Assembly: GCA_963817525.1 (NCBI GenBank)
Contig: CAWFOU010000007.1
Location: forward strand, 256,001-320,000
Reading direction: 5' to 3'
DNA: 64,000 nucleotides
Origin: an uncultured archaeon
GTDB lineage: Archaea; Thermoproteota; Nitrososphaeria; Nitrososphaerales; Gagatemarchaeaceae
The first letter of the stretch is position 1; the number at the start of each line of letters is the position of its first letter. Positions 31,761-56,388 of the stretch are shown in pieces. The position numbers and the translations under genes are program-made. The notes beneath the pieces were generated by a model. It saw only the letters and a program-made list of their open reading frames with translations. It did no database searches and was not told the DNA's origin.

Positions 31761-31806
31761 GATTGGGTTGGAAAGAAGCGCGGGTTCTGGCCATAAAAGC
31801 CGTTTT

Positions 31807-31819
31807 GGAACATTGTTCT
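31807..31819. promoter_or_regulatory. Palindromic motif GGAACATTGTTCT, 8 nt upstream of TATA-like TTTTAT (31798-31793) of the histidine kinase gene
   Basis: Perfect GAACA-T-TGTTC palindrome; spacing shared with other copies. Confidence 0.65.
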
Positions 31820-31854
31820 CATTTAGAAATCTATACTTGCAGCGCGCGAGCCTC

Positions 31855-33651
31855 TCACGTCGGTTCAATCTCGGGCTTGGGGAGATGCTCTGGTGGGGCG
31901 TGGTAGACGGGCTGCACGTCGTTCGGCAGATCGGCCTCGAAGAAATCAATCGTCGTCAGTCTGTCGACCAGCTTCAGCAGCCTCACGAACCTCCTGGGAA
32001 GGAACACAGAGCCAGAGGTCGAACGTATGGAGTAGCCGTCCCGAATCCTCAGCAGGAACATGGGCATGGCCACCGCCAACGGGACGACCGGGATGAGCGA
32101 CAGCAGCCAATCTCCCGGTGCCGGACCGATTACGCTGCCGACGTAGGAGCGGACGGGAGGGGCGAGCGTCGCCACAAAAAGCAGTAATGCGGCGGCGCAG
32201 CCTGCCGCGAGGATCTCCCAGGAGAACCTCCTGTGTCTGGTGATCCTCGAGATGTCCTCCAGGGGGACTGAGATAGTCTCCCCTCCATCGTGATCGTCCT
32301 TGACCAGGAGCCGCCGATTAGTGACGATCGCCTTCAGCTTCCCCGATACCATCGCTTCTAGAGCCTGCTCATCGCTAGCCATGCTGCGCCTGAGCCTCTC
32401 GTCGTCCGAGCGCTCCCTGGCCAAGGCCTCGAGGCGCTTCGCGAGGTTATGGGTCAGCCTTGCCATCGTGAGCGCCCCCGTGCTGTGGACGGCGTTCGTC
32501 CCGAGCCTCTTGCGAAGGGGCTCGTCGTCCACGAGCCTCAGCACCGCGTCCGCGGCCCCGAGGATGTCGTCTGGCCCTTGGAGGACCATCCCGTTTTCCC
32601 CGTCCTTGACCACCCACTGCTGTCCGCCCGCTCCTGAGCTCACGCACCGGGACCCCGTTGGACATGAACTCCAGCTGCGTTATGCCGAGAGCCTCTGAAC
32701 GGCTCAAGATCAGATTGATGGTGGTGGCCTTTATCAGCGCTGACTTTTCGGTTTCAGATATTGAGCCCAGGATGGAGACGTTCGGAAGCTCAGCCGCCCT
32801 CTCCCTCACCCTCCTTCCATATTGTCCTTGTTCTGTACCCGCGATGACGAAATGTATGTCCGTCCTCTGGACCAGTCGTCTCGCGACCTCCAAGACGTTG
32901 AGGGTGTTCTTCCGCTCCTCTACCGTCCCAAGAGATGTGACGAGCTTCGTCGCTGGGAGGATGCCTAGATTGGCGAACACTTCAGCAGGGTCGCCCATCG
33001 AGGCCTGTCAGCTCGTCGATTCCGCCAGGGAAGAGGAAGCACCTGTCCTCGGCCGCCCCCCTCTCCTTCATGGCCTCCTTCTCGAAGGGCGAGACGACCA
33101 GGACCAGGTCGGCCTCTCTCACTATCAGCGAGAGGCTGGTCTGGTTCCAGGCTTCCCTGAAGGACCTCTCGACGACTCCGTATCTATCTGGGCTCGCCTC
33201 CTGGAAGTGGCTCATGTGGCAGAATATCGGGGTCAGCTTGGGTACGCCGTCGCGCGACAGGTTTCTCCTCCACTCTACGAACTTTAGGATCTCCTCCGGG
33301 CCATTCCAGAGCGTCGAATGCGTGATTAGGACGTTGAGCTTGAAGTTGTCCACTATCTTGGCGAGCGTGTCTATGAAGTCGATGAGGGAGGCTCGCCTCG
33401 GCGGCCAGGAGGTCGGCGCGCTCCCCACCCTAATCACCGGTATCCCGAGGCTCTCGTCGAAGGTATAGACGTACCCCGCGTGCATGGCAAGCTCCTCGTC
33501 GGAGATCACCGGCTTCTCGTCCTGATACGGACTCGTGATAAGGAAGGCGTCGTAGTTCATGCGCCCTGAACTCCTTGACCATCCTCTGCGCCACGAGCTC
33601 TTGTCCCTTGGTGAGGCTGGTCTGATACATGACGACGCCGATTCTGAGCAA
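31855..33651 (-). CDS. GT4 glycosyltransferase with C-terminal PH-like/TM domain, paralogue of 54453..56234 (three frameshifts)
   Basis: MLRIGVVMYQTSLTKGQELVAQRMV start identical to the paralogue; SRSEALGITQLEFMSNGVP; pieces in ORFs 33430..33651, 32982..33830, 32447..32998 and 31855..32643. Confidence 0.85.
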
Positions 33652-35671: not shown

Positions 35672-35684
35672 AGAACAATCCATC
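35672..35684. promoter_or_regulatory. Half-conserved motif AGAACAATCCATC, 8 nt upstream of TATGAA (35693)
   Basis: Perfect left half-site, same spacing as the other copies. Confidence 0.4.
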
Positions 35685-35729: not shown

Positions 35730-36269
35730 TTGAGTAGTCAACCGGACGCGGAATCAGAGGTGGTTTGGCAAGCCCATCCATGGATAACGCCTGCGCTAGC
35801 AGGGCTCACGATAGAGGCGGTCGCGTTCGCGATCGTCCTCTCATGGGCCGAGTTCGCGGCGGGCGTGGCCGTCAAAGCCGTCGGCCCTGTCCCGTTGCTC
35901 GCGGCGACATACGGGCTGGTCTTCTTCCTATGGCTGGGCGGATCCTTCAGGCTGGCCCTGGTGCGTGCGTCCAGTCATTACACCCTCAGGGGGTCAAGCC
36001 TTGAAATCCAGCATGGAATCCTTAGTCGGAGGATTTTCACCGTGTCTGCCGCTGGCTTCTCCGACCTCCAAGTAGTCAAGAGCGTCTGGGGCAGAATCCT
36101 AAATACGGGGACCATCGTGATAGAGACCGACAGCGATAGGGACCTGAGGCTGAGGATGATTCACGATCCGATCAAGGTCTCGACCAAGTTAAGGCAGGTG
36201 ATGACGGTTCCTGTTGTAAGGGTCTCTGGCCAAGAACCCATACAAGCAACGAAGGGCAACGGAAAGTAG
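35730..36269 (+). CDS. Bacterial-type PH domain (bPH_2) membrane protein
   Basis: Two TM helices then YTLRGSSLEIQHGILSRR...SVWGRILNTGTIVIET. Confidence 0.8.
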   Translation: MSSQPDAESEVVWQAHPWITPALAGLTIEAVAFAIVLSWAEFAAGVAVKAVGPVPLLAATYGLVFFLWLGGSFRLALVRASSHYTLRGSSLEIQHGILSRRIFTVSAAGFSDLQVVKSVWGRILNTGTIVIETDSDRDLRLRMIHDPIKVSTKLRQVMTVPVVRVSGQEPIQATKGNGK

Positions 36270-36463: not shown

Positions 36464-36856
36464 TCACGCAGACTCCTGTACTTTTGGCTTGATGCTCAGC
36501 CCGTTTATCTTCTGCACGAGTTCTCGTATCCCTATCGGCTTCTGGATGACCTCGCGAACGTTCAGCTTCGCGAAGAGTTTGTTGACCTCGTTCATCAGGT
36601 CCACAAAACCCGTGAGGAAGATCACCTGGACCCCATTGTCTCTCCTCTTCATTTCGTAGACCATCTCGAACCCGTTCATTCTCGGCATCTTGATGTCGCT
36701 GATTATGAGGTCGTAGGCGCCTGGCTTGAAAGCTGCCAGAGCCTTGATAGGGTCATAGAACACGTCCGCCGCGAACCCGTGACTCTTCAGCCCCGCCCCG
36801 AGAGCATTCGCGACGTCATGCTCGTCGTCCACGATTAGGATTCTTAGGAGTGGCAT
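36464..36856 (-). CDS. Stand-alone response regulator receiver
   Basis: ILIVDDE, DIKMPRMNG, FLTG and QKP motifs. Confidence 0.92.
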   Translation of the reverse strand: MPLLRILIVDDEHDVANALGAGLKSHGFAADVFYDPIKALAAFKPGAYDLIISDIKMPRMNGFEMVYEMKRRDNGVQVIFLTGFVDLMNEVNKLFAKLNVREVIQKPIGIRELVQKINGLSIKPKVQESA

Positions 36857-36893: not shown

Positions 36894-36906
36894 GATACAT
36901 TGTTCC
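36894..36906. promoter_or_regulatory. Motif GATACATTGTTCC, 8 nt upstream of TATATG (36885-36880) of the receiver gene
   Basis: 10/13 match to the GGAACATTGTTCT copy at 31807; conserved spacing. Confidence 0.55.
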
Positions 36907-37421: not shown

Positions 37422-38537
37422 TCATGTCGTTGCTGTGCCTATCGCCGTCGTGGGCTTCGAATCGAGCGGGAGCGTGAACTCGAAGACCGCACCGCCGCTG
37501 CCGTATTCAGCTTTGTTCCTCGCGCTTATTTTTCCGCCGTGGGCCTCCACGATGCCCTTGGAGATGAAGAGCCCTAGCCCTGTCCCGCCTTGAGATCGTG
37601 CTCCGAACTTCGTGAAGAGCACCTTAAACATGTCTGGGTCGATTCCAGGTCCGTCGTCGCTGACTTGCAACACAGCCTCTGCTTCGACACGTTTGATTGA
37701 GACTACGACCTCACCTTTGGTCGTGAACTTTGTCGTGTTTTCCAGGAGGTTGGACAGAACCTGGGCGATTCTCTCCCTATCTGCTGAGACGACTATCTCC
37801 TGGGCGGAAGGCTCGAACTTGAGGTCGGCCATTTTCGTTGCCTGCGTCTCGCGGACGATCTCCATGACGAAGAGGTTCAAATCGAACGTCTCCTTCCTCA
37901 AGGTGAGGGTCTTGCTGTCTATCCTCGCTACGTTGAGGATATTCTCGGCCAGGCGCTGAAGCCTTATCGCGTTGCGTTTGATCGCTTGGACCTCTTCGGA
38001 AGTTCCAATCGTGCTGGACTCCAAGATTTCCGCGTAGGCGAGAATCGGCATGATAGGCGTGCGCAGTTCGTGAGCCGCAACGTTGATGAACTCCGACTGC
38101 TGGATGAGCTGCTTTTGGGCAGAGATGATCAATTCCGAGACTGATGCCTTCTTCATCTTATCAGAGGTCGAGCCGCTGATGGCGGGGTCGGCGAGGGCCG
38201 CGAGGAGTCGCTGCTCATCGATCGTCTCCTCCCTCTGCATATTCAGCCAATCAGAGAGCGCCCCCAGACTTCGGCTGACCCTCACGTGCACGTCTCTTCG
38301 AACGGACTCCTGCCTGAGGCGTCTCCTTACAAGCTCATGCCGCTTCTGTAGGTCACGGACGGTATAATTGAGTGTCTGCGCGACCTCGAGGATGACCTTT
38401 TCCCTATCTTTCTTCGTCTTCTCGAAGGTAGAGACCGCTTGACTGCGGAACGCCTCTATGCGCCTTCTGGCGTCCTTCACCGAAGCCTCGTTGCGTATCC
38501 TGAACTCTTCGCGCGCGCGATCGATGTCTGTGCTCAT
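37422..38537 (-). CDS. Soluble histidine kinase, last gene of the gvp operon
   Basis: AAHELRTP, NLLENTTKFT, DDGPGI and GTGLGLFISKGIVEAHGG; ATGA overlap with the gvpH stop. Confidence 0.92.
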   Translation of the reverse strand: MSTDIDRAREEFRIRNEASVKDARRRIEAFRSQAVSTFEKTKKDREKVILEVAQTLNYTVRDLQKRHELVRRRLRQESVRRDVHVRVSRSLGALSDWLNMQREETIDEQRLLAALADPAISGSTSDKMKKASVSELIISAQKQLIQQSEFINVAAHELRTPIMPILAYAEILESSTIGTSEEVQAIKRNAIRLQRLAENILNVARIDSKTLTLRKETFDLNLFVMEIVRETQATKMADLKFEPSAQEIVVSADRERIAQVLSNLLENTTKFTTKGEVVVSIKRVEAEAVLQVSDDGPGIDPDMFKVLFTKFGARSQGGTGLGLFISKGIVEAHGGKISARNKAEYGSGGAVFEFTLPLDSKPTTAIGTATT

Positions 38538-38974
38538 TTTTGGTCCCTCCTCCGGAGGAAGGTGATCTCCACGACAGAGTTGTTCTGCGTGGTCGACTTT
38601 ACTTCGACGCTGCCGGGGGCGACCTTGCACGGGACGTCTCTTCGATGCACCCTCCCGCCCTTCGAGACCTCGATTCGCAGGACGTCGTCCAAGAACCTTA
38701 CGTGTACGTCCTCCTTCTTTACGCCCGGCAGCTCCACGACGACCCTGAGGCCCTTTTCGTCGTCGAAGACGTCGACTAGTGGCTCTTGGACTGGAGGCTC
38801 AACAGGCACGCTCTCAGGGATGGCACTCCTGATAGAGATGCTAGATGTGACCTTGATGAAGTCGTCCCCGACGGTCCTCCGCGCCTTCACTTGCCTCCCT
38901 TCATCGAGCTGCTTCAGGGTCCAGGCGAGTTCTACCCCCAGCTCCTCCAGCAGATCGTCGATGTCCCAGATCAA
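38534..38974 (-). CDS. gvpH: GvpH/Hsp20 family protein
   Basis: EPLVDVFD...VVVELPGVKKEDV...NNSVVEI alpha-crystallin domain; TTG start overlaps the gvpG stop. Confidence 0.75.
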   Translation of the reverse strand: MIWDIDDLLEELGVELAWTLKQLDEGRQVKARRTVGDDFIKVTSSISIRSAIPESVPVEPPVQEPLVDVFDDEKGLRVVVELPGVKKEDVHVRFLDDVLRIEVSKGGRVHRRDVPCKVAPGSVEVKSTTQNNSVVEITFLRRRDQK

Positions 38975-39201
38975 CCCGCGGGGCCTCCCTTCGATAGCTT
39001 CCTGAGCTCTTCCAGAATCTCCCCCTGGCGCTTCCCGTACTCCTCCTGGTCGATGAGGCCTGTGCTGAAGTCGATGTCCAACTGTACGACCCTCGATTTT
39101 AGCCACCTTCCGCGCTCACTGTTCTCGGCCTCGTTTGCGATTCGGTTGCACTCTTCGACAATAGCTTGGAACGTGATTTTCAGGATGAGATAGGTGGCTA
39201 T
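38971..39201 (-). CDS. gvpG: GvpG-like gas vesicle protein (76 aa, apparent ATA start; absent from ORF track)
   Basis: Manual translation IATYLILKITFQAIVEECNRIANEAENSERGRWLKSRVVQLDIDFSTGLIDQEEYGKRQGEILEELRKL...*; SD-like GAGGTGA 9 nt upstream. Confidence 0.7.
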   Translation of the reverse strand: MATYLILKITFQAIVEECNRIANEAENSERGRWLKSRVVQLDIDFSTGLIDQEEYGKRQGEILEELRKLSKGGPAG

Positions 39202-39215
39202 CGTCTCTGCTCACC

Positions 39216-39951
39216 TCAGCAGAAGGAGTACGGGGCCCACGGGCCGCTGGAGTGGACCAGCAGGCCCTTTTCCGCGTACTCCTTCCCGAGGAGTCCCGCG
39301 CGAGCCAAAAAAGCTCCGTCATCCTGGCGTGGGACCAGATACGCCGCGTTGAGCACGATTTGCTCGTGCTCCGACTTTAGAATCGAGTTTTCTTGCGAGT
39401 TTAGAACCAAATCGGCGTGTATCTCCCTGCTGAGCTGGTCCATCTTTCTGTAGGCTTCGCTCTTGATGGCCTCGCTCATCTTCAGCTTGGTGAAATACGA
39501 TGCGCCCTTGCCGGCCTTCGCCATGGAGCGGCGCATCTTCACGATCTCGGGCGACGTCTTCTCGACTTCGCTCTTCAGCTTCGCCAACCCCGCCTTGTTG
39601 AATAGGACTTTGATCCCGAACTCGTCCATCCCATCGAGCTTCATGAGCTTCTTCCGGTAATCATCATAGGACTTTGCGAGTAGTGTCACCACGCCGTCCT
39701 CCCTCTTGAATATCGTCCCGAACTTCACGGGAAGCGTCGTGCCGATCTTCCTCGAGGCCTCGACCATGCGCTGGTGCGCCATTATGTTGTCGATGTTCGC
39801 CTCTATCTCGGCGTAGGGGACGACGCTGACTACAGCCCCGACATCCTTGTACCCCACGATGTGGGCTGGCTTTCCGAACAGCCCCACGTCCTCGAGTGCC
39901 TGCGGGTCTGGCAGAGTCGACTATGCAGTAGACGTATCTGCCGTCGGTCAA
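39216..39951 (-). CDS. gvpF: GvpF/GvpL family gas vesicle protein (frameshift near 39900)
   Basis: GRYVYCIV start, AHQRMVE...TLPVKFG, LNAAYLV and SGPWAPYSF motifs. Confidence 0.88.
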
Positions 39952-40436
39952 AGGTGGATCACAGGCCCGTCGTCCAACCAACGCCTCTCTCCGTAAACCG
40001 GGTAGAGCATGGCGAGCAGGTCAATTCCTATAAGGTCAACGTCGGAGACCGATATCCGGACCTGCCCCGCGACGACTGCGCCCCTGTCGATGAGACGGTC
40101 GAGCACGTCGACCAGCGACGCCTTACCCCCCGTCTTGAGCAACGAGCCCAGCGCGACGTCAAGCTCTTTTGAGCCCAGCCCAAGGCTCTTCGTCAGTTTG
40201 GCCATCTCCCGGCTGAGCTGCATGAAAGCCACTCCCATCCGTTCGACCTCCTCCTCGGATAGTGTCCCGGACTCCACCCTCCGCATCGCCTGCCTCTCCA
40301 TGAGCTGCCTGACCACCTCCATCACCGTCAGTGTCAACTTGGCCAGCCCCTGCTGCATCTTTTGGCCTCCCTCTCCCAGGTCTATCCTGTCGCCTGAATC
40401 CCGAGTCCCCTTGGTCTTGTTGACCGCGCGCTGCAA
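39948..40436 (-). CDS. gvpK: GvpK fused to a C-terminal GvpJ/M-like (GvpA family) domain
   Basis: GLAKLTLTVMEVVRQLMERQAMRRVESGTLSEEEVERMG (GvpK) followed by SLVDVLDRLIDRGAVVAGQVRISVSDVDLIGI. Confidence 0.85.
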   Translation of the reverse strand: MQRAVNKTKGTRDSGDRIDLGEGGQKMQQGLAKLTLTVMEVVRQLMERQAMRRVESGTLSEEEVERMGVAFMQLSREMAKLTKSLGLGSKELDVALGSLLKTGGKASLVDVLDRLIDRGAVVAGQVRISVSDVDLIGIDLLAMLYPVYGERRWLDDGPVIHL

Positions 40437-40700
40437 CTAGCGAACCACCTTGTAGTTCTTGGCATCGGTCACACGTCTGGGAGGACTTCTCGTCTTGTGC
40501 TGCTCCTCCCATGGAAGTCTCAGTCCATAGCGCTTCGCTGTTTCCAGTGAAGCGATCACCAGGTTGACCTTGACGGAGAGCAGTTCAACGCTCCCGACGC
40601 TCACGGTGATGTCCCCGTTTATCACCACCCCCTTTTCCAAGATGCGGTCTAGGAGGTCGACCAGTGAGAGGTCCCTACGACCCATCTGGCTAAGGGACAA
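40437..40700 (-). CDS. gvpJ: GvpJ-like gas vesicle protein
   Basis: SLVDLLDRILEKGVVINGDITVSVGSVELLSVK...IASLETAKRYGL motif. Confidence 0.88.
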   Translation of the reverse strand: MSLSQMGRRDLSLVDLLDRILEKGVVINGDITVSVGSVELLSVKVNLVIASLETAKRYGLRLPWEEQHKTRSPPRRVTDAKNYKVVR

Positions 40701-40956
40701 TCTCGGCCCCCTCCCGTTTCATCCTACAGTAACCGCACACCCCTGAGTCCTTGAACCAGTGCTTGTTGCAGAACCCCTCTATGTTCTCCTCGCCCATTGT
40801 CTTCGAGAGGTAGACCTTCGCGATGTCGAAGGGGGTGCCGCGGTGACACTCTGGGCAGCGCATGAAGACCCAGCCCTTCTTCATCGCTTCCTCCATGTCG
40901 AGCTTGTCATACTTGCCGCAGACGAGACATATGGCCAATGATAGCCATCCGTCCAC
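40690..40956 (-). CDS. Small double-zinc-site protein inside the gvp operon
   Basis: CLVC, CPEC, CNKH and CGYC; 3 nt after the gvpA stop and overlapping gvpJ. Confidence 0.7.
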   Translation of the reverse strand: MDGWLSLAICLVCGKYDKLDMEEAMKKGWVFMRCPECHRGTPFDIAKVYLSKTMGEENIEGFCNKHWFKDSGVCGYCRMKREGAEIVP

Positions 40957-40959
40957 GAG

Positions 40960-41205
40960 CTAACGCACAGGAGGTTCGGTCATCGGAGCCGGCGTCCCGG
41001 GCGTGGCCGCGAGGCCCAGAGCCTGTGCGTAGCGCAGGAACGCGTCGATTCCCGCGACGACAATCCTTGCCCTGATCACCAGGATTTCGATTCCGACGAG
41101 GGCGACAGACACGTTGGCGTCTATTACAATTCCCTTGTCTAGGACTCTATCGATTAGGTCGTATATGTTAAGAAGAGGTCTATAGCCCATCTGTGCTTGG
41201 GACAC
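40960..41205 (-). CDS. gvpA: Gas vesicle structural protein GvpA
   Basis: DLIDRVLDKGIVIDANVSVALVGIEILVIRARIVVAGIDAFLRYAQALGL. Confidence 0.93.
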   Translation of the reverse strand: MSQAQMGYRPLLNIYDLIDRVLDKGIVIDANVSVALVGIEILVIRARIVVAGIDAFLRYAQALGLAATPGTPAPMTEPPVR

Positions 41206-41251
41206 GGTTACTCACCCGTGCTTGGGTTGCAAAGAGCATAAATGTTGGTAT

Positions 41252-41277
41252 GGAGAATTGTTATAGAACAATCTTCT
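41252..41277. promoter_or_regulatory. Tandem motif pair GGAGAATTGTTAT + AGAACAATCTTCT, 9 nt upstream of TTTATG (41242-41237) of gvpA
   Basis: Second copy matches the consensus 12/13; copies are directly adjacent. Confidence 0.65.
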
Positions 41278-41374
41278 ACCTGAGACTTGGGTCTCTAGCC
41301 GTGAGCCGACCGACCCTTGTCGCCAGGCAAGTCTCGGACAGTAGTGGTGCCAAACCACCCGAGGCCCGTCGATG

Positions 41375-41545
41375 TCATGAGATTGCGACGCCGAAAATCA
41401 GGGCAATCAGGAAGAGCACCACAAAGAGGACAATCAGGATCTTAGCTATCTCCATAGAGAACCCTGCAATCCCCCGTGCGCCGAAAGCGTACGCGAGGAA
41501 TGCGATCACCAGGAACACGATTGCCAACCCGAGTAGGCCGATCAC
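41375..41545 (-). CDS. DUF1328/UPF0391 (YtjA-like) small membrane protein, 56 aa (below ORF-track cutoff)
   Basis: Manual translation MIGLLGLAIVFLVIAFLAYAFGARGIAGFSMEIAKILIVLFVVLFLIALIFGVAIS. Confidence 0.85.
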   Translation of the reverse strand: MIGLLGLAIVFLVIAFLAYAFGARGIAGFSMEIAKILIVLFVVLFLIALIFGVAIS

Positions 41546-41782
41546 TGTGCTTTCCCCATGTAGAGGCGGGACGCAACCTTATGTTCGCGCGCTTAGAAAA
41601 TCCCTTAACATAGTTCTTCCTCGCCGAGTTCTCCGCAAGTCTGGAGCCACTACCGAGATTTGATTTCATTCCCGACCGCGCGATTCACGTATATCGTTAC
41701 GAATTCAATCCACAGAGAAGATTACCGGAGCGTTAATCGACTAGATTGACATTCCCGGCGGCGAATCCAAATACGTTAGCTT

Positions 41783-42442: not shown

Positions 42443-42625
42443 GGAATCGTCCGCGGGCCTACGCACCCCTGGCCGACCCATGTATGTCCCCTCATTGAGA
42501 AATCTTCACGGTGCCGGCTTTGTATTGGAATCGGCACGGATCGCCCGTATTGATAACCAATGAAGCAATCCGCGTCCTCGACGTGCGCTGGCAGGAAATT
42601 GTCGAGATACGTGTAGCACACGGGG

Positions 42626-42691
42626 GAAGGCGATTAACAGAAACACGACCGCCAGCCCGAGCAGACCTATAATTCGCTGATCTTTCACCAT
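42626..42691 (-). pseudogene. 5' fragment duplicate of the DUF1328 gene
   Basis: IGLLGLAVVFLLIAF versus IGLLGLAIVFLVIAF; similarity stops abruptly after this. Confidence 0.6.
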
Positions 42692-42848
42692 GAGATATGG
42701 GAATCCGATGGTTATCCTGTGGAAGGCGGTTTTTCGGGTAGCATGGTTCTCGCAAAATACTGGCACAATGGACGACGAGCTCGTGCGCAAAAAAGTGGGA
42801 GGGGTTCGGCTCGAGCGCCCTTGCGAGCGAGCGTCTACCCCTACGGTC

Positions 42849-43652: not shown

Positions 43653-43979
43653 CTACTTTTCCATCTCGTTGTCTTGGCCTCCGAATATGTCCGCTAGCTC
43701 ATCGTAGGCTGCCATAAGCCTCCTTCCCCGCTCGGTGGTCACATATTTCGTCCTCTTGACGTATTCCTCGACCTGCAGCGTTGAGACGAGTTTCCGATTG
43801 AGCATGAAGTCGATATATTGTTGGAGCTGCTTTGAGTTAAGGTTGCACTTGTACATGACATGCGTCTTGAGCGCTCCTCCCTCACAGACTGTGAGCATGA
43901 GGTCGACGATTTCAAGCCAACCCCTGTTCCCCCATCTCAGGACGCTCTTGTTCTCCAAGTCACCGTGATTCTCAGCCAT
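43653..43979 (-). CDS. Small winged-helix DNA-binding protein (archaeal HTH_45-like)
   Basis: RGWLEIVDLMLTVCEGGALKTHVMYKCNLNSKQLQQYIDFM...YVTTERG. Confidence 0.88.
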   Translation of the reverse strand: MAENHGDLENKSVLRWGNRGWLEIVDLMLTVCEGGALKTHVMYKCNLNSKQLQQYIDFMLNRKLVSTLQVEEYVKRTKYVTTERGRRLMAAYDELADIFGGQDNEMEK

Positions 43980-44200
43980 CTTTGCACCCGGCGACACGCC
44001 ACCCCTAATCATCCCAATAGCGCCTCCTCCTCAGCGGCCGCCAGTTCGGCATCGAATGCTTCGATTCGTTGACCAGTCTGAGCCTGCGACCTGACTCGAA
44101 TCACAGCTGCAACAGCGCTGGGCTCGACGTCGTGCCAGGCGCCCACCTGTGCGCAGTCTTGTCATAGAGCACCAATTACCGGGCCGCTTATATCATCGGT

Positions 44201-44213
44201 GCAATTTTGTTCT
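44201..44213. promoter_or_regulatory. Motif GCAATTTTGTTCT, 8 nt upstream of TATAAG (44192-44187); promoter reads towards the wHTH gene via a short leader ORF starting at 44165
   Basis: 9/13 match with near-complete right half-site; conserved spacing. Confidence 0.5.
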
Positions 44214-44976
44214 ATAACGCCGCAAGCATTCGTGAGTCTAGCTGGTGGGTCTCCGCAGCCGCTCCGCCTCCAGGTGGGATATCGCCGCCGTTTCCTCGGA
44301 TGAGCCGTGAGGCATCAGGGCCGAGGTTGAACAGCATGTCGACTATTGACAGATCAGGAACGAACGCCCCCGTGAATCTTTGGCGATATGGGATTGGGGC
44401 GTATTCCTGAAAGACGAGTCTGACCCCCTCGTTTTCGAACAGCGTCAGGTCTATGTAGTTCCTTCCGCCGCGGCCCGACACGTATGTGTCTGCCCCCACC
44501 GCTTTGCAAACGTTAACCAGTCGCTCGGTGGCCTTCCCATCCACCTTCAATTCTGACTCACGCACGACCGGGAGGTTGAGGCCGAGCCATTCCATCGATT
44601 GCTTCAAGAGGTCGAGGTCTAGCTCCAGCAGCAAGTCCCACTTACTTTGGAATGTCTCCTCAAGGCGGCCTGCGTAGAGCCCGTAGAATGATGCGTTGCG
44701 ATAGGAGAGGGAAATCTTCTTGCAGTGGTCGTCGCTCCAACGGACGCCGTTATTGATCTTGACAGAGGCGTTTGGAAGGAATTTGTCGTCCTTCACGATT
44801 GGCACGGTAAGCCATATCGGCCCTTGTGGGACGAGGATCTTGTTCCTGTTCGTGAACCGCTTATCGTATTGCACGTCATCCATTATCACGAGCACATCCG
44901 CGAGGCTCAGCTTGTGGAAAAAGCCCGGGTATGGGATGTACATCGGCTGATGGATGGCGGCCTTCATGATGTTCAC
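44212..44976 (-). CDS. WbqC family protein
   Basis: AIHQPMYIPYPGFFHK...DDVQY...NRNKI, YVSGRGG..Y and LSIVDMLFN motifs. Confidence 0.92.
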   Translation of the reverse strand: MNIMKAAIHQPMYIPYPGFFHKLSLADVLVIMDDVQYDKRFTNRNKILVPQGPIWLTVPIVKDDKFLPNASVKINNGVRWSDDHCKKISLSYRNASFYGLYAGRLEETFQSKWDLLLELDLDLLKQSMEWLGLNLPVVRESELKVDGKATERLVNVCKAVGADTYVSGRGGRNYIDLTLFENEGVRLVFQEYAPIPYRQRFTGAFVPDLSIVDMLFNLGPDASRLIRGNGGDIPPGGGAAAETHQLDSRMLAAL

Positions 44977-45007
44977 CGAACTGTTCTCGAGAGCTACTCC
45001 CTTCCGA

Positions 45008-45961
45008 TCATCGGTCTTCGCGCTGGCTCGAATGCGAGCCAGCCTGAGGGCGGCCGTGCGTCCCGAGCAGCCTCGATACTTCGGATGTTCTCCTTCGTAG
45101 AGTTATTGTGGTGACCCCCGCGGCAAACGCGATTCTGATTTGCGTCGTGGACGCGGTGGTCTCGTTTGCCGCCAGGAAGAGCGCGGCAGCCGCGATTGAA
45201 GCAGGCCTCTTTCCCACCAAGAGCGGTTCATTCTTCACTTTCTCCAGGATTTGAATCGCCCGCCTCTCTGTGACACCTCCCAGGCGAGCGCGGTTTGCGA
45301 TTCTGGAGACCTGAGAGGCAGGGTCGGGGGAAGAGAGGCGCAGTCCCGCCCCCTTTGACAGCACCTTTGAATAGTGCAAGATGCTCTTTCCACCCTGAGC
45401 GTCAGCAATGTGCTGTATCTCCTTTACCGACCGTGGGATACCGCTCTCCCTGCACGCGAGGTAGACGGCAGCCTCAGCCATCCCGACGATGGACCTCCGT
45501 TTCCCGCGTCCATCCTCGACGCCCCTGCGGTATAGCTCGTACGCTCTCTCGACCGTGTTCTTGCCGGTGCCCAGGGAGTCGCCGATACGTTGGATCTCGC
45601 CCGCCGCCCTCGTGAGGTTCCTCCTCTTGGAGTCGCTCGCGATGGTCATGTTGTTCAGGCGCCTTAGCCGATTCATGTCTCCGATGTCGGAGATTTGATT
45701 CCCCCTCGCGTCGACGTCGCGGCCGTCGATTTTGGCGGGCAGGGAGATGTAATACATCATGCCCGAGTTGTCATCACCAATCACTGAACCCAACTCCGCG
45801 GAGGGAGCACCGAAGAACTCCGAGAACTTCAGGTCGTCACTTCTGCTCACGACGCCGCATTCGGCACAGACTTGCTCGCCGGTATCGAAGTCAGACACGA
45901 GGTCAGCTCGACACTCACGGCACTTTTCGGTCACTTTCAAGGAGGTTGGGTCCGCTAACAT
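45008..45961 (-). CDS. tfb: Transcription initiation factor B paralogue (divergent)
   Basis: Zn ribbon CREC...CAEC; cyclin repeats RNLTRAAGEI, AVYLACRESGIPRS, GKRPASIAAAAL, TQIRIAFAAGVT. Confidence 0.9.
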   Translation of the reverse strand: MLADPTSLKVTEKCRECRADLVSDFDTGEQVCAECGVVSRSDDLKFSEFFGAPSAELGSVIGDDNSGMMYYISLPAKIDGRDVDARGNQISDIGDMNRLRRLNNMTIASDSKRRNLTRAAGEIQRIGDSLGTGKNTVERAYELYRRGVEDGRGKRRSIVGMAEAAVYLACRESGIPRSVKEIQHIADAQGGKSILHYSKVLSKGAGLRLSSPDPASQVSRIANRARLGGVTERRAIQILEKVKNEPLLVGKRPASIAAAALFLAANETTASTTQIRIAFAAGVTTITLRRRTSEVSRLLGTHGRPQAGSHSSQREDR

Positions 45962-46089
45962 GGCAGGCTTTTCGCGCGTCCCGAATAAAAACGGTTGGAC
46001 TAAAATTTCAATATTATTTTATGTCTTCAAAATTCAATAACAAAGTTCTGTGCGGTTGACCGAAGAAAAAACGGAAGCTCGAAGAGGAG

Positions 46090-46120
46090 ATAAAAAATAA
46101 AGGCCGCCATCAGGCGGCCT
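46090..46120 (-). terminator. Hairpin plus U-tract downstream of the wHTH gene
   Basis: AGGCCGCC-ATCA-GGCGGCCT perfect stem followed on the minus strand by TTATTTTTT. Confidence 0.6.
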
Positions 46121-46148
46121 GCGCTGATTCTTTCCGCGGCCGTGTCGT

Positions 46149-46439
46149 CTATCCGAGTAGATCTGGGATGACCGTTTCTGGGGTCTTGTTGTTGTCCAGA
46201 GAGACGATGTCGCTAATCTCGTCGTAGACTCTCAGGAACCGAAGGCCTTGCTCCGTGAGCTTGTATTCTTGGCTGTTCTCCTCGAAACTGATCAGTCGTC
46301 TTTCCTTGAGGAAGTGGATGTATTCCTGGACTTGCGCATAGGAAAGGTACGCGCTGTACATGAGCCGGGTCTTTGTCGCACCGTTCATCGCGGCCTGCAG
46401 AATCATGGCGATTATTTCTGTCCTGCTGCGGTACTTCAT
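46149..46439 (-). CDS. Small winged-helix DNA-binding protein (archaeal HTH_45-like)
   Basis: MKYRSRTEIIAMILQAAMNGATKTRLMYSAYLSYAQVQEYI...YKLTEQG. Confidence 0.92.
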   Translation of the reverse strand: MKYRSRTEIIAMILQAAMNGATKTRLMYSAYLSYAQVQEYIHFLKERRLISFEENSQEYKLTEQGLRFLRVYDEISDIVSLDNNKTPETVIPDLLG

Positions 46440-46478
46440 GCTACCGTGTTATTCTGAGGTTCTGTATATTAACTATCT

Positions 46479-46491
46479 GAAACAATCTTCT
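46479..46491. promoter_or_regulatory. Motif GAAACAATCTTCT, 6-8 nt upstream of TTAATATA (46472-46465) of the wHTH gene
   Basis: Shares AACAATCTTCTA (12 nt) with the gvpA site. Confidence 0.55.
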
Positions 46492-46656
46492 AAAAAGTCC
46501 CTCCAGTTAAAATCCTTGCAACTAATTCGTCGACTCCGCGTCATTTTGGTTGAACCGTGATGGCTCGAGTCAATTTCGACTTACAATCACAAAGTAGATA
46601 CCTCCCTACAAAAAGTCAATCATCGACTTATATGCTCGCGGCAGGCTTTCCTCAAT

Positions 46657-48781: not shown

Positions 48782-50143
48782 ATGATGATCAAAGTATCCG
48801 GCGGCCGGGAAGGCAAGAGCTCGGTGCGTGCCGTTCTCCCCGCTGAGCTCGCGCAGTTTCTGAATCGCCGCTCGTATTCCCTCCTCATCAAGGGCGAAGC
48901 CGCGACCGGGAAGACCATCCTTGCTCTATCGATACTCAAGGAGTTCGGGGCGGGGGGCAACTATCTGTATCTCTCGACGAGGGTCTCGCCGTCTCAACTC
49001 TTCGAGAACCACCCGTGGCTGGCGGATCTCCCCAAGACCGAGAAGCGGGAGGTCGGCGACCAACCGGAAGACCAGAATCAGAGCCGATTCGTGGACTCTA
49101 GGCTCGACGAACCGATCCCATTCTTCGAGCGGATTACAAACGAGCTGATGGATACTAAGTCGCCGACGATCGTAATCGATTCATGGGACCCTATCGCCAT
49201 GATGATGAAAGACGAAGCACTGTTCTCGAACACGAAGGTCTTGCAGACGTGGCGCGAGCGGGCCGAGGCGAAGATAATCACCTTGGTCGAGGACTCTGAG
49301 AACACCAGCTTCGATTCTCTCTTTGACGGGGTCGTCACTCTTGACCGATATTACGAAGACGGAAGGATCGTCAGGATGATACAGCTTTCAAAGCTAAGCG
49401 GTGTGAAAGTGACTCGCCCCTCATATCTTTTCACTCTGGATGGCGGCATCTTTCAGAGTTTTGGGTCGCAAAGCCCGTTGGAAATCGAGGCTCGAAAGTC
49501 TCGCGGTTGGGCATGGGAGAAGAGGATGCACACCACGGGATATGTTGAACTCGACGCGGTTTTGGATCGGACGCTGCCCCAAGGCACGTTGGTGCACATC
49601 AACGTGACACCGGGAGTCAACTCGGGGACCGTCCTTCTCTTGCTGAGCGGGATCCTTGGGCGAGGCGGCCCACGGTCAAGGGCCATGTTTTTCAGGCCGT
49701 TCGAAGGGATAGGTCTGGAAAAGGCAAGCGGCGCGCTCGGAGACGTGATCCCCATAAGGCAAGCCAGGCCAAGAGGAGGGGGCAACGGGTCAAAGACGTG
49801 GGCCGAGTCGCTCAAGGGCTTGGTGAAGAAGCAGAAAGGAGCTAGGCCCGGGCAGAAGATTGCCGTGGTAGTGGGCTCGGAGTTCCTTCTCAACGCCGAC
49901 GGAGAAGAGGACAGGGAGGCCCTGCTCGAGCTCATGAAATCTGAAATCGACCTGTCGGTGCTGGTCAGCGACAGCGAGACGCCCTCGGAGAGCGGTGCCC
50001 AGGCCGCGGACGTCTCCCTCAAGCTCTCCGACATCAACGGAATCCCGCTGCTGGAGGGGCAGCTCCCATGGACGGAATACTTCGTCATCGCCGCGAATGC
50101 CTTTAACGGCGACCTGACTCTTCGCCTCGTCCCGATGGTATAA
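48782..50143 (+). CDS. gvpD: GvpD-like / RAD55-KaiC family P-loop ATPase
   Basis: SLLIKGEAATGKT Walker A, YLSTRVS, IVIDSWD Walker B, DGVVTL; second KaiC-like domain with a degenerate P-loop. Confidence 0.75.
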   Translation: MMIKVSGGREGKSSVRAVLPAELAQFLNRRSYSLLIKGEAATGKTILALSILKEFGAGGNYLYLSTRVSPSQLFENHPWLADLPKTEKREVGDQPEDQNQSRFVDSRLDEPIPFFERITNELMDTKSPTIVIDSWDPIAMMMKDEALFSNTKVLQTWRERAEAKIITLVEDSENTSFDSLFDGVVTLDRYYEDGRIVRMIQLSKLSGVKVTRPSYLFTLDGGIFQSFGSQSPLEIEARKSRGWAWEKRMHTTGYVELDAVLDRTLPQGTLVHINVTPGVNSGTVLLLLSGILGRGGPRSRAMFFRPFEGIGLEKASGALGDVIPIRQARPRGGGNGSKTWAESLKGLVKKQKGARPGQKIAVVVGSEFLLNADGEEDREALLELMKSEIDLSVLVSDSETPSESGAQAADVSLKLSDINGIPLLEGQLPWTEYFVIAANAFNGDLTLRLVPMV

Positions 50144-50158
50144 ATATAGTGAAATCTG

Positions 50159-50551
50159 TTGAGTGGAACGTTGAGAATTCTCTTGGTGGACGACGAGGTC
50201 GACATCACCTCTAGCCTCAAGATGGGTCTCGAGCGTCATGGATTCCAGGTGGACGCCTTCAACGACCCCAAGAAGGCCCTCGCGGAATTCAAGGCAAACC
50301 GTTACGACATGATCTTCCTCGACATCAGGATGCCCCAGATGAACGGCTTCGAGCTGTACCGGGCCCTGAGAGCAAGCGACCAGAATGTGCAGATCGCCTT
50401 CTTGACCGCGTTCGATGTCTACCAAAACGAGTTCCACAAGATGTTTCCAGACATGAAGGTAGACAGGCTATTGCGGAAGCCCATCAGCATCAAGGAGCTG
50501 GTGGCATACGTAAAGTCCCAAAGGCCGCCTGCGAAAAAAGTCACGTTCTAG
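50159..50551 (+). CDS. Stand-alone response regulator receiver
   Basis: ILLVDDE, LDIRMPQMNG, FLTA and RKP motifs. Confidence 0.92.
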   Translation: MSGTLRILLVDDEVDITSSLKMGLERHGFQVDAFNDPKKALAEFKANRYDMIFLDIRMPQMNGFELYRALRASDQNVQIAFLTAFDVYQNEFHKMFPDMKVDRLLRKPISIKELVAYVKSQRPPAKKVTF

Positions 50552-51228: not shown

Positions 51229-51480
51229 TCAGGCCGCGGAGCCCTTCTTGAAGTGTTTGACCTTCCCGAAATCCCCGACATCGACGCCGAACCTCTTGGC
51301 CGCGGCGAGTATCCTGCGCCGCGCAGCCTCGGGGTGGCACTCGTTGGTTATAACCTGGTCGAAGCGAGCCATCGCGTTCCTGACGTGCGCCGCGTCGTTG
51401 ATCGGCAGCTTCCTGTCCACAGGGCAGGCAAATTGCGATGAGGAAAGACTCTCCCTCCTCTCCGTGTCTAGCTTGGCCAT
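51229..51480 (-). CDS. DUF6582-like small protein
   Basis: LSSSQFA.P..RKLPINDAAHVRNAMARFDQV...ARRRILAAAKRFGV. Confidence 0.8.
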   Translation of the reverse strand: MAKLDTERRESLSSSQFACPVDRKLPINDAAHVRNAMARFDQVITNECHPEAARRRILAAAKRFGVDVGDFGKVKHFKKGSAA

Positions 51481-51517: not shown

Positions 51518-51530
51518 TGAATATTGTTCT
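51518..51530. promoter_or_regulatory. Motif TGAATATTGTTCT, 8 nt upstream of TTTAAA (51509-51504)
   Basis: 11/13 match; conserved spacing. Confidence 0.6.
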
Positions 51531-52707: not shown

Positions 52708-52962
52708 TCAGCCCTTCTCGACTACTACCTTGTCCATTATGATCTTGGCTACCGTGTAAGACCATAGCAATCGTTTATCTTTCATCCCCTTCATGTCGAT
52801 TCTCCTCCCGAATCGGAACGTAACGTGCCTGTCTCCTTCGCGCAGATTGATTCCGTATCCGCGAATGAGGTTGGCAAAAGTCTCCCATGCTCTAACGTGA
52901 ACGGAGTACTCGTAATCGACTCGCTCATCGTTAGCCGGGGACGACTCACCAATTGATTCCAT
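52708..52962 (-). CDS. Hypothetical protein
   Basis: ATG preceded by SD-like GGAGG and a promoter with the palindromic motif. Confidence 0.5.
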   Translation of the reverse strand: MESIGESSPANDERVDYEYSVHVRAWETFANLIRGYGINLREGDRHVTFRFGRRIDMKGMKDKRLLWSYTVAKIIMDKVVVEKG

Positions 52963-53013: not shown

Positions 53014-53026
53014 AGAACAATGTTAT
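53014..53026. promoter_or_regulatory. Motif AGAACAATGTTAT, about 9 nt upstream of TTTATC (53004-52999)
   Basis: 12/13 match to the consensus. Confidence 0.6.
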
Positions 53027-54199: not shown

Positions 54200-54452
54200 C
54201 CTTGGACGGGTGCCTAGAAGAGCGCCTGGCTTGGACTCGCGCCTCTTCGAGAGGACCCACGCGAAGAAAATCGCGCGAAACCACCTCGGCGCGTCCTCCT
54301 TCGGGACATTGAAACTTATCTAGAAGTTGACTACGTTGCTTGGCCTGACGCCGAACCTTATACCTACGCCGGCCCTCGACGAGGGCGAGCCGGCCGGCCC
54401 CTCCCGGTAGCAATTTACTCCTTTCGAAGAACCCGAGCGCGCGGTTCGCGGG

Positions 54453-56234
54453 TCAGGCCCGGGGAGCCGCGGCGGCTTCGGCGTCCACGCCGGTGAGCTC
54501 GTTAGGTGTGAGCTTTTCCGCCAGCCTGAGAGCCTTTGCGAACTTGGAAGGAAGGAAGAGCTTCCGGGACGACCCGTAGTGCACCACGTATCCGTTTCTC
54601 ACGGAGGACAGAAAAGCCGCAGCCGCCACCACCGCGGGCACGAACGGCAACATCGCGGTGAGCAACCCGACCGCGCCCGGGAACCCGATGGACAAGAGCG
54701 CGGAAGAGAGGACGGGAGTGAGAGGCTTTAGCAACCCAACGCCCAGGGCCCCCTGCGCGACGAGGAGGCCCGTCGCAAGCGCCCCGAGGGCGAGCGTTCC
54801 CCAGGGGGCCTCTGCGTGCCTTTCGATGCTCGAGATGTCGTCGTACTTAATCGTCGTCACCTTGGTCCCGCTCTTGGCCGACCTGACGATAAGGCGCTTT
54901 GAGGTCGCCGCCACCTTCCTGCCCTTGTGCACCCAGGCCTCTATTATCCGCTCGTCTCCAGGCATGCCGTTGAGGGAGGAGAGGTCGTCGACCGACGCTC
55001 GGACCTCCTGCTCGAGACGCGTCGAGAGGGTGTCGACCAATCGTGGGAGGGAGTAGGGCGAGGCTGTCCGCGTCGCGACCTGCCCCAGCTTCCGTCTCAG
55101 CTTGGGACTGTCGGCCAGCCTCTTGATGGCGGCCGCCGCCCCGCTGGCGTCCTCGGGGCCGTTAAGGACTATCCCGTTGGCGCCGTTGCCGACGATCCAG
55201 GACTGACCCCCGACCCCGGACGTGATCACGGGGACTCCCGCCGACATGAACTCGAGTTGGGCGATGCCGAGGGCCTCAGACCTGCTCATCGTTATGTTTG
55301 CCAGGGAGGTCCTGATGAGGGCGGCCTTCTCCTCTTCCGTTATCGAGCCGAGCACCGAGACGTTCGGGAGCTTGCTCGCAGCGTCCTTGAGGGCGTCGGC
55401 GTACTCGCCGTCCGCCCTGCCTGCTATGACGATGCGAATGTCCTTCCTGTCCTCCAGTAGCTTGGCGACTTCGAGGAGCTCGAGCGGGTTCTTCCTCTCC
55501 TCGACCGTTCCCAAGAAGGAGATAAGCTTCGCATGTGGCGGAAGCCAGTGCTTTACCCGGAATTCCTCCTCTCCGCCCAGAGAAGCTATGTCTTCGTCGT
55601 CTATGCCGCCCGGAAAGAGGAAGATCTTCTCGTCCTTAGCGCCCAACCCCTTCATGAAGTTCGCCTCTTGGGGGGTCGTCACCAGGATGAGGTTCGCTGC
55701 CGCTATGACCTGCGGCAGGATGACATTGTTCCAGGCTTCTCTGTACGACCTCTCCACGATGGCGTACCTCTCGTCGTTGGGTTCTTGGAAGTGGCTCATG
55801 TGGCAGAAGATCAGAGGGGAGCGTGGGGCGCCGCCCTGTGCCATCTTCCTTCTCCAGGCCACGAACTTCACGACCTCCTCGGGGCCGTTCCAGAGGGTCG
55901 AATGGGTGATGAGGACGTTGAGCTTCAAGTCGTCGACGATGGTAGTCAGGACGCCGACGAAGTCGGTGAAGGATATCCGCCTGGGAGGCCAGGTCGTGTT
56001 GTCGCTGTTCACCCTGATAACGGGGATCCCCATGTCCCTGTCGAACATGTGGGCATAGCCTCCCCTCTTCTTCACCTCGTCCGGGCTGACAACCTGCTCC
56101 GAGTCCCGGAATACGCTCGTTATCAGGAACGCGTCGTGCCCCTGTCTGCAGAACTCCCTGACCATCCTCTGGGCCACAAGCTCCTGCCCTTTGGTGAGGC
56201 TGGTCTGATACATTACGACGCCAATTCTAAGCAA
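54453..56234 (-). CDS. GT4 glycosyltransferase with C-terminal PH-like/TM domain
   Basis: GTVEERKN and SRSEALGIAQLEFMSAGVPV (E-x7-E) motifs; C-terminal beta domain with two TM helices. Confidence 0.88.
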   Translation of the reverse strand: MLRIGVVMYQTSLTKGQELVAQRMVREFCRQGHDAFLITSVFRDSEQVVSPDEVKKRGGYAHMFDRDMGIPVIRVNSDNTTWPPRRISFTDFVGVLTTIVDDLKLNVLITHSTLWNGPEEVVKFVAWRRKMAQGGAPRSPLIFCHMSHFQEPNDERYAIVERSYREAWNNVILPQVIAAANLILVTTPQEANFMKGLGAKDEKIFLFPGGIDDEDIASLGGEEEFRVKHWLPPHAKLISFLGTVEERKNPLELLEVAKLLEDRKDIRIVIAGRADGEYADALKDAASKLPNVSVLGSITEEEKAALIRTSLANITMSRSEALGIAQLEFMSAGVPVITSGVGGQSWIVGNGANGIVLNGPEDASGAAAAIKRLADSPKLRRKLGQVATRTASPYSLPRLVDTLSTRLEQEVRASVDDLSSLNGMPGDERIIEAWVHKGRKVAATSKRLIVRSAKSGTKVTTIKYDDISSIERHAEAPWGTLALGALATGLLVAQGALGVGLLKPLTPVLSSALLSIGFPGAVGLLTAMLPFVPAVVAAAAFLSSVRNGYVVHYGSSRKLFLPSKFAKALRLAEKLTPNELTGVDAEAAAAPRA

Positions 56235-56388
56235 ATTTCAAATTACCCCGGATTTTCGTTGAGGATCCTCCAATTCGCTTCGCGTCATGGCAGGACGAAG
56301 AATATGGGCCGTCTTTCTATAAAAACCCCAGTGCAAGAATTCTACAGAAGAATTCTCTATCTTGAAATTCTGAGCACGCGAGCTTCGC

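Follow-up and report, generated by a model that had tools for sequence, protein, structure and literature searches.

A conserved 13-bp palindrome directly upstream of TATA boxes in an uncultured thaumarchaeon, and a small Sso10a-family protein as its candidate binder

Several archaeal activators, including Ptr2, SurR, TrmBL1 and GvpE, are bound just upstream of the B recognition element (BRE) and the TATA box, and in haloarchaea the GvpE site adjoins the BRE of the gvpA promoter. An upstream activator site abutting BRE/TATA is a known kind of system; to our knowledge gene regulation has hardly been explored in Thaumarchaeota, and not at all in the uncultured acid-soil lineages. Here we analyse a 13-bp palindrome that recurs in a 64,000-nucleotide (nt) stretch from an uncultured member of the Gagatemarchaeaceae (C7:256001-320000; hereafter the window), where it lies upstream of gas-vesicle, signalling and small-protein genes and of the gene for a small winged helix-turn-helix (wHTH) protein, wHTH-2. 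An earlier note on this DNA had likened the arrangement to that of the known archaeal activators, and the likeness held, the palindrome being a conserved cis-element directly upstream of the BRE/TATA position. The explanation that we favour, and rate a little above even, is that the 13-mer is the transcription-factor site of a small regulon, that its most likely binder is a dimer of wHTH-2 together with its paralogues, and that binding activates.

Among the described factors, EarA, the archaellum regulator of Euryarchaeota, is a winged-helix protein that, according to passages of PMC5512572 and PMC10665913, is bound just upstream of BRE/TATA and activates; passages of the same papers and of PMC10117864 suggest that recruitment of TFB to a weak BRE is its probable role, and state that a stronger BRE bypasses the need for it. 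TFB-RF1 of Pyrococcus furiosus, an activator recruiting to the core promoter, is mentioned in the same excerpts of PMC5512572.

The host genome (G000; 2.82 Mb in 15 contigs, ~61% GC) was compared with 40 related genomes, which are metagenome-assembled genomes (MAGs) of 54-99% completeness, so that 'not found' among them is not equal to 'absent'. Judging by the close relatives of the wHTH protein, which come from Thaumarchaeota/Nitrososphaerales MAGs, the host is a non-ammonia-oxidising thaumarchaeon and not a haloarchaeon; for this reason the haloarchaeal GvpE frame, in which the earlier note had set the element, is inapplicable. Genes were called with a simple codon-score caller that overlooks small genes, which makes intergenic status rough throughout, and Pfam and NCBIfam profiles were applied to the open reading frames (ORFs) between 29.6 and 58 kb of the window. 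A TATA-like window is one with at least 6 of 7 positions A/T.

The motif is commoner than in controls, as had been proposed. The consensus of the earlier note, AGAACAWTGTTCT, to which mismatches were partly counted by hand, has 16 matches with ≤3 mismatches in the window against 6.80 ± 2.57 in 100 dinucleotide shuffles, of which 0/100 reached 16. Five of these matches have ≤2 mismatches (31807, 41265, 46037, 51518 and 53014) and all five fall within 31.8-53.0 kb. The two ends of the window, 1-31 kb and 57-64 kb, have no site that combines ≤2 mismatches with the TATA geometry; the earlier note had likewise seen none at the few promoters that it checked in the first 30 kb. Throughout the genome there are 46 matches with ≤2 mismatches, 35 of them intergenic, compared with 6-18 intergenic matches for each of 29 palindromes with a permuted half-site; with ≤1 mismatch there are 8 intergenic matches, and the permuted palindromes give ≤2. 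TATA-like windows start 6-10 nt from the motif at 17/34 sites, against 79/314 control sites (Fisher p = 0.004). From orthologous promoters we derived a refined, oriented consensus, AGAASAWTSTTCY, with a frequent T before and A after it that extend the element to 15 bp. With a TATA-like window at a gap of 5-9 nt, this refined motif is found at 62 genome sites, whereas 40 column-permuted patterns gave 16.7 ± 6.2 (maximum 31). Among 25-kb bins of the genome, the richest two cover the window region and a low-GC island at C7:75-100 kb.

Chance, by which an A/T-rich word would simply be common in a low-GC island, is in our view most improbable. The GC content is indeed 55-60% at 30-58 kb, versus 62-65% in the first 30 kb, and the excess disappears once 3 mismatches are allowed (124 intergenic sites, versus 3101 over the 29 controls, mean 107), so the most degenerate copies are indistinguishable from chance by sequence alone and need other support. 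The motif was also outside the top 30 when 6-mers were scanned blindly for enrichment upstream of 871 crude promoters (many small genes being missed), which makes it the mark of a small regulon, not a general promoter element. Against chance, the composition-matched controls are exceeded and, above all, the site is conserved at orthologous promoters with diverged flanks. Two further scans gave nulls: the half-site TGTTCT alone occurs as 274 intergenic words without flanking signal and is therefore uninformative, and a start-codon-anchored composition profile was too noisy given the gene calls.

For the conservation analysis, orthologues and paralogues were located in the 40 related genomes, their upstream regions were compared and distinct promoters were counted, with the following results:

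wHTH-2 promoters (n=16): 12/16 with ≤2 mismatches; 14/16 with ≤3 mismatches, each of the 14 having a TATA-like box 4-9 nt away.
gvpA promoters (n=5): 4/5 with ≤2 mismatches; 4/5 with ≤3 mismatches.
DUF6582 promoters (n=10): 5/10 with ≤2 mismatches; 8/10 with ≤3 mismatches.
Promoters of the 84-residue protein family (n=11): 6/11 with ≤2 mismatches; 6/11 with ≤3 mismatches.

The earlier idea that the site would be kept upstream of orthologues was thus borne out. By chance, a match with ≤2 mismatches would be expected at ~5e-5 per position. The flanks around the motif diverge freely between genomes and are unalignable by eye, and, as read from these comparisons, the phylogenetic footprint is the strongest evidence for the element. 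Orthologues of wHTH-2 keep the site throughout the genus, as does one from another family of the order (G027; L011). At the gvpA promoter two abutting copies are present in G000, G020 and G009, a single copy in G013 and none in G027; tandems with the same 13-nt period were also found at one promoter of the 84-residue family, one DUF6582 promoter and one TFB promoter.

The copies in the window, with mismatches to the consensus of the earlier note where counted, are:

31807..31819, minus strand: AGAACAATGTTCC, 7 nt from CTTTTAT, upstream of a histidine kinase gene; 1 mismatch, and 0 to the refined consensus.
35672..35684, plus strand: weak copy AGAACAATCCATC, a single half-site, 7 nt from ATATGAA, upstream of the bacterial-PH-domain (bPH) gene 35760-36269; 5 mismatches.
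36894..36906, minus strand: GGAACAATGTATC, 8 nt from TATATGT, upstream of the receiver gene 36464-36856; 4 mismatches.
41252..41277, minus strand: tandem pair upstream of gvpA, distal AGAAGATTGTTCT (41265-41277, 1 mismatch) and proximal ATAACAATTCTCC (41252-41264), then 7 nt to CATTTATG.
44201..44213, minus strand: variant 13-mer AGAACAAAATTGC, 7 nt from ATATAAG, directly past the WbqC stop codon, promoter of the wHTH-1 unit; 4 mismatches.
46037..46049, minus strand: motif-like site AGAACTTTGTTAT, ~46 nt upstream of the TATA of a TFB paralogue.
46479..46491, minus strand: AGAAGATTGTTTC, 6-7 nt from TTAATATA and 24 nt ahead of the start codon of wHTH-2; 3 mismatches.
51518..51530, minus strand: AGAACAATATTCA, 5-7 nt from TTATTTAAA, upstream of the DUF6582 gene 51229-51480; 2 mismatches.
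53014..53026, minus strand: ATAACATTGTTCT, 6-7 nt from TTATTTAT, upstream of the 84-residue ORF 52708-52962; 1 mismatch.
56333..56358, minus strand: tandem variant AGAGAATTCTTCT + GTAGAATTCTTGC, 7 nt from TTTTTATAG, upstream of the GT4 glycosyltransferase gene 54453-56213.

The copies and coordinates first listed for this DNA are as in the sequence, and the strong ones (31807, 41265, 46479, 51518 and 53014) are real. The weaker copies at 36894, 35672, 44201 and 56333/56346 gain support from conserved counterparts elsewhere, the last two being variant 13-mers. Four further copies had been proposed and lack support: at 48436 and 41605 the compared orthologous promoter has no site, and no comparison lends support to 42738 and 52571. 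Two genes, one RuBisCO-large-subunit-like and one for a eukaryote-type topoisomerase IB, are chance neighbours of weak motif matches (C8:55128-56303 and C7:122638-124218).

The palindrome is laid out as AGAAS-AWT-STTCT, that is, 5 + 3 (A/T) + 5. In the promoters examined it sits on the side of the TATA-like box away from the gene; the fixed side and narrow range claimed earlier held, but the measured gap is 5-8 nt instead of a fixed ~8 nt. The supported window copies belong to minus-strand genes lying left of TATA, apart from 35672 with its plus-strand gene, and this orientation places the motif upstream of TATA, beyond the BRE position. With 21-37 nt between the TATA-like box and the start codon, the place of the motif is ~-38 to -52, directly upstream of the BRE position; the site overlaps neither TATA nor the start region in any promoter examined, and extra copies stack outward from the core promoter with a period of 13 nt. 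The 6 nt between motif and TATA have near-zero information content in 66 sites that were pre-selected on motif and TATA and are maybe about half chance, a measure with no lineage-specific BRE reference behind it.

The genes that bear on the binder lie side by side in the window:

46149..46439, minus strand: wHTH-2, Sso10a-family winged-helix protein (HTH_45 and Sso10a_fam profiles, PDB similarity).
45008..45961, minus strand: divergent TFB paralogue with zinc ribbon and two cyclin repeats (two TFIIB repeat matches).
44212..44976, minus strand: WbqC-family gene, cassette member (Pfam).
43653..44012, minus strand: wHTH-1, Sso10a family / HTH_45, second subfamily (Pfam and NCBIfam).

The most likely candidate binder, on the evidence of orthologous and paralogous promoters, is wHTH-2, a protein of 96 residues whose promoter keeps the site in 14/16 distinct cases. 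It scores 74.8 bits against Pfam PF14947 HTH_45 (cut-off 25.5) and 82.8 bits against NCBIfam NF053610 (Sso10a_fam; cut-off 60), and it matches PDB 1r7j (E = 6.4e-16, residues 2-81 on 2-82, from the winged helix into the first part of the C-terminal helix) and PDB 4hw0 (E = 2.1e-5); in the 1r7j alignment its C-terminal helix is seemingly shorter than that of Sso10a. According to the title of Chen 2004, as cited in PMC4941522, the solved relative is a dimer of winged-helix domains. Across 12 orthologues of wHTH-2 there is no variation at residues 32-36, 39 and 40 (L S Y A Q.. E Y), and from the wHTH fold we infer that they lie in the recognition helix. The genome contains at least 13 HTH_45 matches. 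At wHTH-2 and its two closest paralogues (70% and 62% identity) the site is 6-7 nt from TATA in 3/3 cases, and most of the 10 more distant HTH_45 places listed are without it; the single good match among those is one locus in two identical copies, oriented to a divergent gene.

The earlier note had named both small wHTH proteins as candidates carrying the site at their own promoters, which holds for wHTH-2 but not for wHTH-1, whose promoter has the 13-mer at 44201. At three other loci the counterpart of 44201 reads GTAACAATATTGC or CTAACAATATTCC, then N7, then ATATAA; the arrangement GTAACAATATTGC-N7-ATATAA directly past the WbqC stop is conserved at four loci in all, where it heads the unit containing wHTH-1. 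By these comparisons 44201 is a different 13-mer, separately conserved at the equivalent position. The wHTH-1 protein also differs from wHTH-2 over the stretch of invariant residues, and the two differences together would fit one variant per paralogue. A third form is found at the GT4 promoter, where the proximal variant GTAGAATTCTTKC is kept in 7 orthologues of ≥67% identity. Three related, separately conserved 13-mers (AGAASAWTSTTCY, GTAACAATATTGC and GTAGAATTCTTKC) occupy an equivalent position. On the bolder reading set out below, which we think doubtful, these 13-mers and the HTH_45 matches of the genome would point to a promoter code shared by the whole family, with one variant per paralogue.

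Several points weigh against wHTH-2 as the binder or against activation as the effect, and they bear on two alternatives. The first, which we regard as unlikely, is that the site is real but is bound by a protein of another family encoded elsewhere, e.g. Lrp/AsnC, the wHTH genes being merely targets. Lrp/AsnC sites are typically 13-bp palindromes with an A/T centre, and 5 + 3 (A/T) + 5 is the classic format of that family. The genome has 17 AsnC_trans_reg matches, with one gene in the window (~60983-61438). Moreover, the GT4 variant persists in several genomes without a wHTH-2 orthologue among the matches listed, so that another factor is needed for that variant at least. A further point against wHTH-2 is that the antiparallel coiled-coil rod of Sso10a may set the two winged helices at too great a distance for half-sites spaced by 8 bp. 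In favour of wHTH-2, a whole-genome survey of the motif, with the reversed pattern as the only control, gave 136 versus 41 summed over genus members with a listed wHTH-2 orthologue or fragment and 49 versus 33 in members without one, these sums being grouped by hand, with coding DNA included and the genomes being kin; the correlation is weak, and G005 (12 versus 1) has only a distant HTH_45 match listed. Against an Lrp-type binder, 0/14 Lrp-domain genes examined have a site with ≤2 mismatches beside TATA, the only 2-mismatch match at Lrp genes (C1:171404) lying ~120 nt upstream with no adjacent TATA, and the site accompanies wHTH-2 promoters at the frequency given above. A second control pattern for the survey, ASAAGAWTCTTST, was dropped because it overlaps the motif itself. 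The ORF at 60983-61438 has two AsnC_trans_reg (RAM) matches, and its promoter is without the motif.

The second alternative, which seems to us quite improbable, is that wHTH-2 does bind, but as a repressor, an autorepressor or a local architectural protein of the kind to which its Sulfolobus relatives belong. For Sso10a-family proteins, both a transcription-factor and a chromatin role have been argued. Small wHTH proteins that regulate themselves frequently act as repressors, and autorepression would suit the self-association of site and wHTH gene no less than activation would; the proximal half-site lies against the BRE position and could block TFB. The studied Sso10a proteins are described, in the abstract of PMC4941522, as general, abundant architectural DNA binders with no known cognate sequence, which bend, bridge or coat DNA. 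The favoured explanation as a whole is further limited in that TATA boxes were assigned by A/T richness and starts by rough ORF calls; in public runs the locus 38500-47500 appears in soil-metagenome DNA contigs only, with no RNA run listed. Repression fits less well with a site that stays clear of TATA and the start region, with extra copies that point outward, and with the lack of a conserved purine-rich BRE in the 6-8 nt gap, as seen in the pre-selected sites described above. According to passages of PMC5512572, activators of the EarA type operate where the BRE is weak.

Activation through wHTH-2 is the most likely reading because the site lies beyond BRE/TATA at a fixed distance, copies stack outward and no conserved BRE is seen between in the pre-selected sites. 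In the mechanism that we propose, a dimer of wHTH-2 and its close paralogues would bind the palindrome and regulate their own genes, and the bound dimer would help TFB/TBP onto a weak core promoter; the TFB assisted in this way may be the divergent paralogue encoded next door.

That paralogue has CxxC...CxxC at residues 14-35 and reaches 160 bits against the NCBIfam TFB profile (cut-off 384), which marks it as divergent. A search with it at E ≤ 1e-40 found 23 places, 14 of the divergent type (36-100% identity) and 9 ordinary ones (33-34%). At the divergent places an HTH_45 gene lies within 350 nt in 9/14 and within 3.5 kb in 4 more, with 1 at a contig end, and 0/9 ordinary places have an HTH_45 gene nearby among the matches listed. 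The cassette wHTH-2 / TFB / WbqC / wHTH-1 adjoins the gas-vesicle operon in G000, G020 and G009, the neighbours of the wHTH-2 gene being the TFB paralogue, WbqC and GlmS. There is a second cassette at C7:942166-945478 of the host genome, with a wHTH-1-like gene, a 236-residue gene, WbqC, TFB and a divergent wHTH-2-like gene. As far as gene neighbourhoods can tell, this repeated wHTH-TFB pairing, which the earlier note overlooked, is the strongest contextual clue. Upstream of the TFB paralogue a motif-like site was found at 7/9 loci. In G013 and G027 it adjoins TATA, whereas at the remaining loci it lies ~46 nt further upstream, and the place of 46037 is kept in G009 and G020. A complex prediction for the TFB core (residues 95-310) and 2 copies of wHTH-2 scored zero; it was run without controls and counts neither way. 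Near the second cassette lie a GlmS paralogue (954613), a paralogue of a 152-residue ORF (956881) and two more HTH_45 genes; the window cassette is seemingly without the 236-residue gene between WbqC and wHTH-1, which leaves ~170 nt from promoter to wHTH-1.

The shared cassette, and a motif that abuts the BRE position, could also mean that the 13-mer is an extended core-promoter element read by the divergent TFB itself, without a wHTH protein. We hold this to be very unlikely: TFB is monomeric and reads ~6-7 nt beside TATA, a palindrome of 13-15 bp with 13-nt tandems reaching 26-39 nt upstream suits a dimeric factor, and in several site-bearing genomes, among them G005, G015 and G021, this TFB type was not found at E ≤ 1e-40. 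A bolder extension of the wHTH-2 reading, which we offer tentatively and think doubtful, is that the Sso10a-type wHTH and its own TFB paralogue, with WbqC and the second wHTH, form a portable cassette comparable to an alternative sigma factor. The wHTH dimer on the 13-15 bp palindrome would then recruit its cognate TFB paralogue to promoters without a usable BRE, and so turn on the genes for gas vesicles, for proteins of the envelope or secreted proteins, and for signalling.

The predicted regulon of wHTH-2 would comprise the gas-vesicle (gvp) operon, the receiver, the kinase, DUF6582, the 84-residue family, PH-domain proteins, secreted proteins elsewhere and the regulator's own gene. The earlier view that one element links gvpA, receiver, kinase, DUF6582, a small-protein family and small wHTH genes stands; its 'stress microproteins' were a guess, the small proteins having no family match in Pfam or NCBIfam. 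The putative targets around the gas-vesicle genes, and the kinase further left, are:

38534..41190, minus strand: gas-vesicle operon (Pfam).
40960-41190, minus strand: gvpA (Pfam).
40690-40956, minus strand: zinc-ribbon ORF between gvpA and gvpJ/M.
40437-40685, minus strand: gvpJ/M (Pfam).
39948-40436, minus strand: gvpK-gvpJ fusion (Pfam).
39216-39887, minus strand: gvpF/L (Pfam).
38534-38974, minus strand: Hsp20-like ORF (Pfam).
37422-38537, minus strand: histidine kinase (profile scan).
36464-36856, minus strand: receiver (profile scan).
29622..31760, minus strand: histidine kinase (HATPase_c profile match), putative target of the 31807 copy.

The gene order of the operon is identical in G020, G009 and G013, and the histidine kinase and receiver come after it in every copy. 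Its zinc-ribbon-like ORF is cysteine-rich, has 88 residues and is 80-94% identical in the same three genomes; no match to the GvpN/GvpO families was found among the 33 ORFs scanned. At the receiver promoter the G009 orthologue reads GGAAGAATCTAGC-N8-TATTTGA, and a 3-mismatch copy stands 8 nt from TATA in both G000 and G009. For the bPH gene 35760-36269 the G009 orthologue has no site at its promoter, and a paralogous bPH gene of the host (C7:1177533) has AGAACAATTTTCC-N7-ATATATC. Among its true relatives the 31807 kinase is alone in having the site; of the related kinase loci compared, just one other, in G021 and close to a disrupted wHTH-2 gene, shows a similar site and geometry. A KaiC/GvpD-like P-loop ATPase followed by a receiver-only response regulator (48782-50551) is conserved in G020 and has a promoter without the motif, its GvpD_P-loop match being modest (E = 7.5e-13).

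Outside the window, the island C7:74000-101000 (54% GC) encodes five paralogous secreted proteins of 187-417 residues with signal-peptide-like N-termini. Their genes share a near-identical 5' region of ~110 nt, with the motif ~73 nt upstream of the start codon and adjoining an inverted repeat, CAGTTGA...TCAACTG. The arrangement AGAACATTCTACC-N6-TTGAATA is common to two more proteins, both membrane-anchored (C7:95831-97054 and C1:744392-745138). Within the window, region 30001-58000, with the lower GC content given above and a negative GC skew at ~38-46 kb, may be a flexible island. Identical or near-identical stretches occur across contigs of the assembly (C1:500994 = C4:13328, C1:545900 = C13:7220, C1:549513 ~ C6:1669), which suggests assembly redundancy or strain mixing, in agreement with the stated contamination of 8.75%.

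What emerges is a concrete, testable predicted regulon of ~20-30 promoters in each genome, defined by a single motif at a fixed spacing and provided with a named candidate factor. Should this candidate prove correct, the Sso10a family would gain its first cognate DNA sequence in the palindrome. The element may represent gas-vesicle gene control outside haloarchaea, cyanobacteria and other bacteria. The pairing of wHTH proteins with divergent TFBs would also make it testable why archaea have many TFB paralogues, and whether partner proteins aim them at subsets of promoters. In the literature that we consulted, mostly as titles, abstracts and passages, we found no description of the motif, of regulation in this lineage, of a site specific for Sso10a or of an Sso10a-TFB pairing. 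Specifically, 'PF14947' was not found in any paper, the Sso10a papers (mostly abstracts) give no specific site, the main text of the Gagatemarchaeaceae genome paper mentions no gas vesicle, TFB, promoter or transcription factor, and the element was not found in work on thaumarchaeal TFB paralogues, Nitrososphaera promoter motifs or thaumarchaeal gas vesicles (mostly titles and abstracts).

Set against the known systems, the locus differs from haloarchaeal GvpE in phylum, in an unrelated motif and in the many non-gvp genes served, and no GvpE-type gene was recognised in the window. With the Lrp-family factor Ptr2 of Methanocaldococcus jannaschii and with TFB-RF1 it shares palindromic or upstream sites that abut the core promoter, from which those factors recruit TBP or TFB; they belong to other protein families, however, and no examined Lrp gene here carries the site. 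Both wHTH-1 and wHTH-2 are by sequence members of the Sso10a / Sac10a family (PDB 1r7j, 4hw0; HTH_45; NF053610), but the Sulfolobus proteins are described as architectural with no known cognate sequence in the abstract of PMC4941522, whereas the protein here has ties with a specific conserved palindrome, its own promoter and a TFB paralogue. The sites of EarA in Methanococcus maripaludis and Pyrococcus furiosus are words of 6-8 nt (TACATA; passages of PMC10665913), in contrast to the 13-15 bp palindrome found here. The target of EarA is the archaellum operon and its gene stands beside a methyltransferase and/or archaellum or chemotaxis genes (passages of PMC10117864), whereas wHTH-2 stands beside a TFB paralogue and its putative targets are gas vesicles, signalling genes and small proteins. 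Set side by side without sequence comparison, the two nevertheless resemble each other in being small winged-helix proteins whose actual or predicted sites lie directly upstream of BRE, at a fixed distance and often repeated (passages of PMC5512572, PMC10665913 and PMC10117864).

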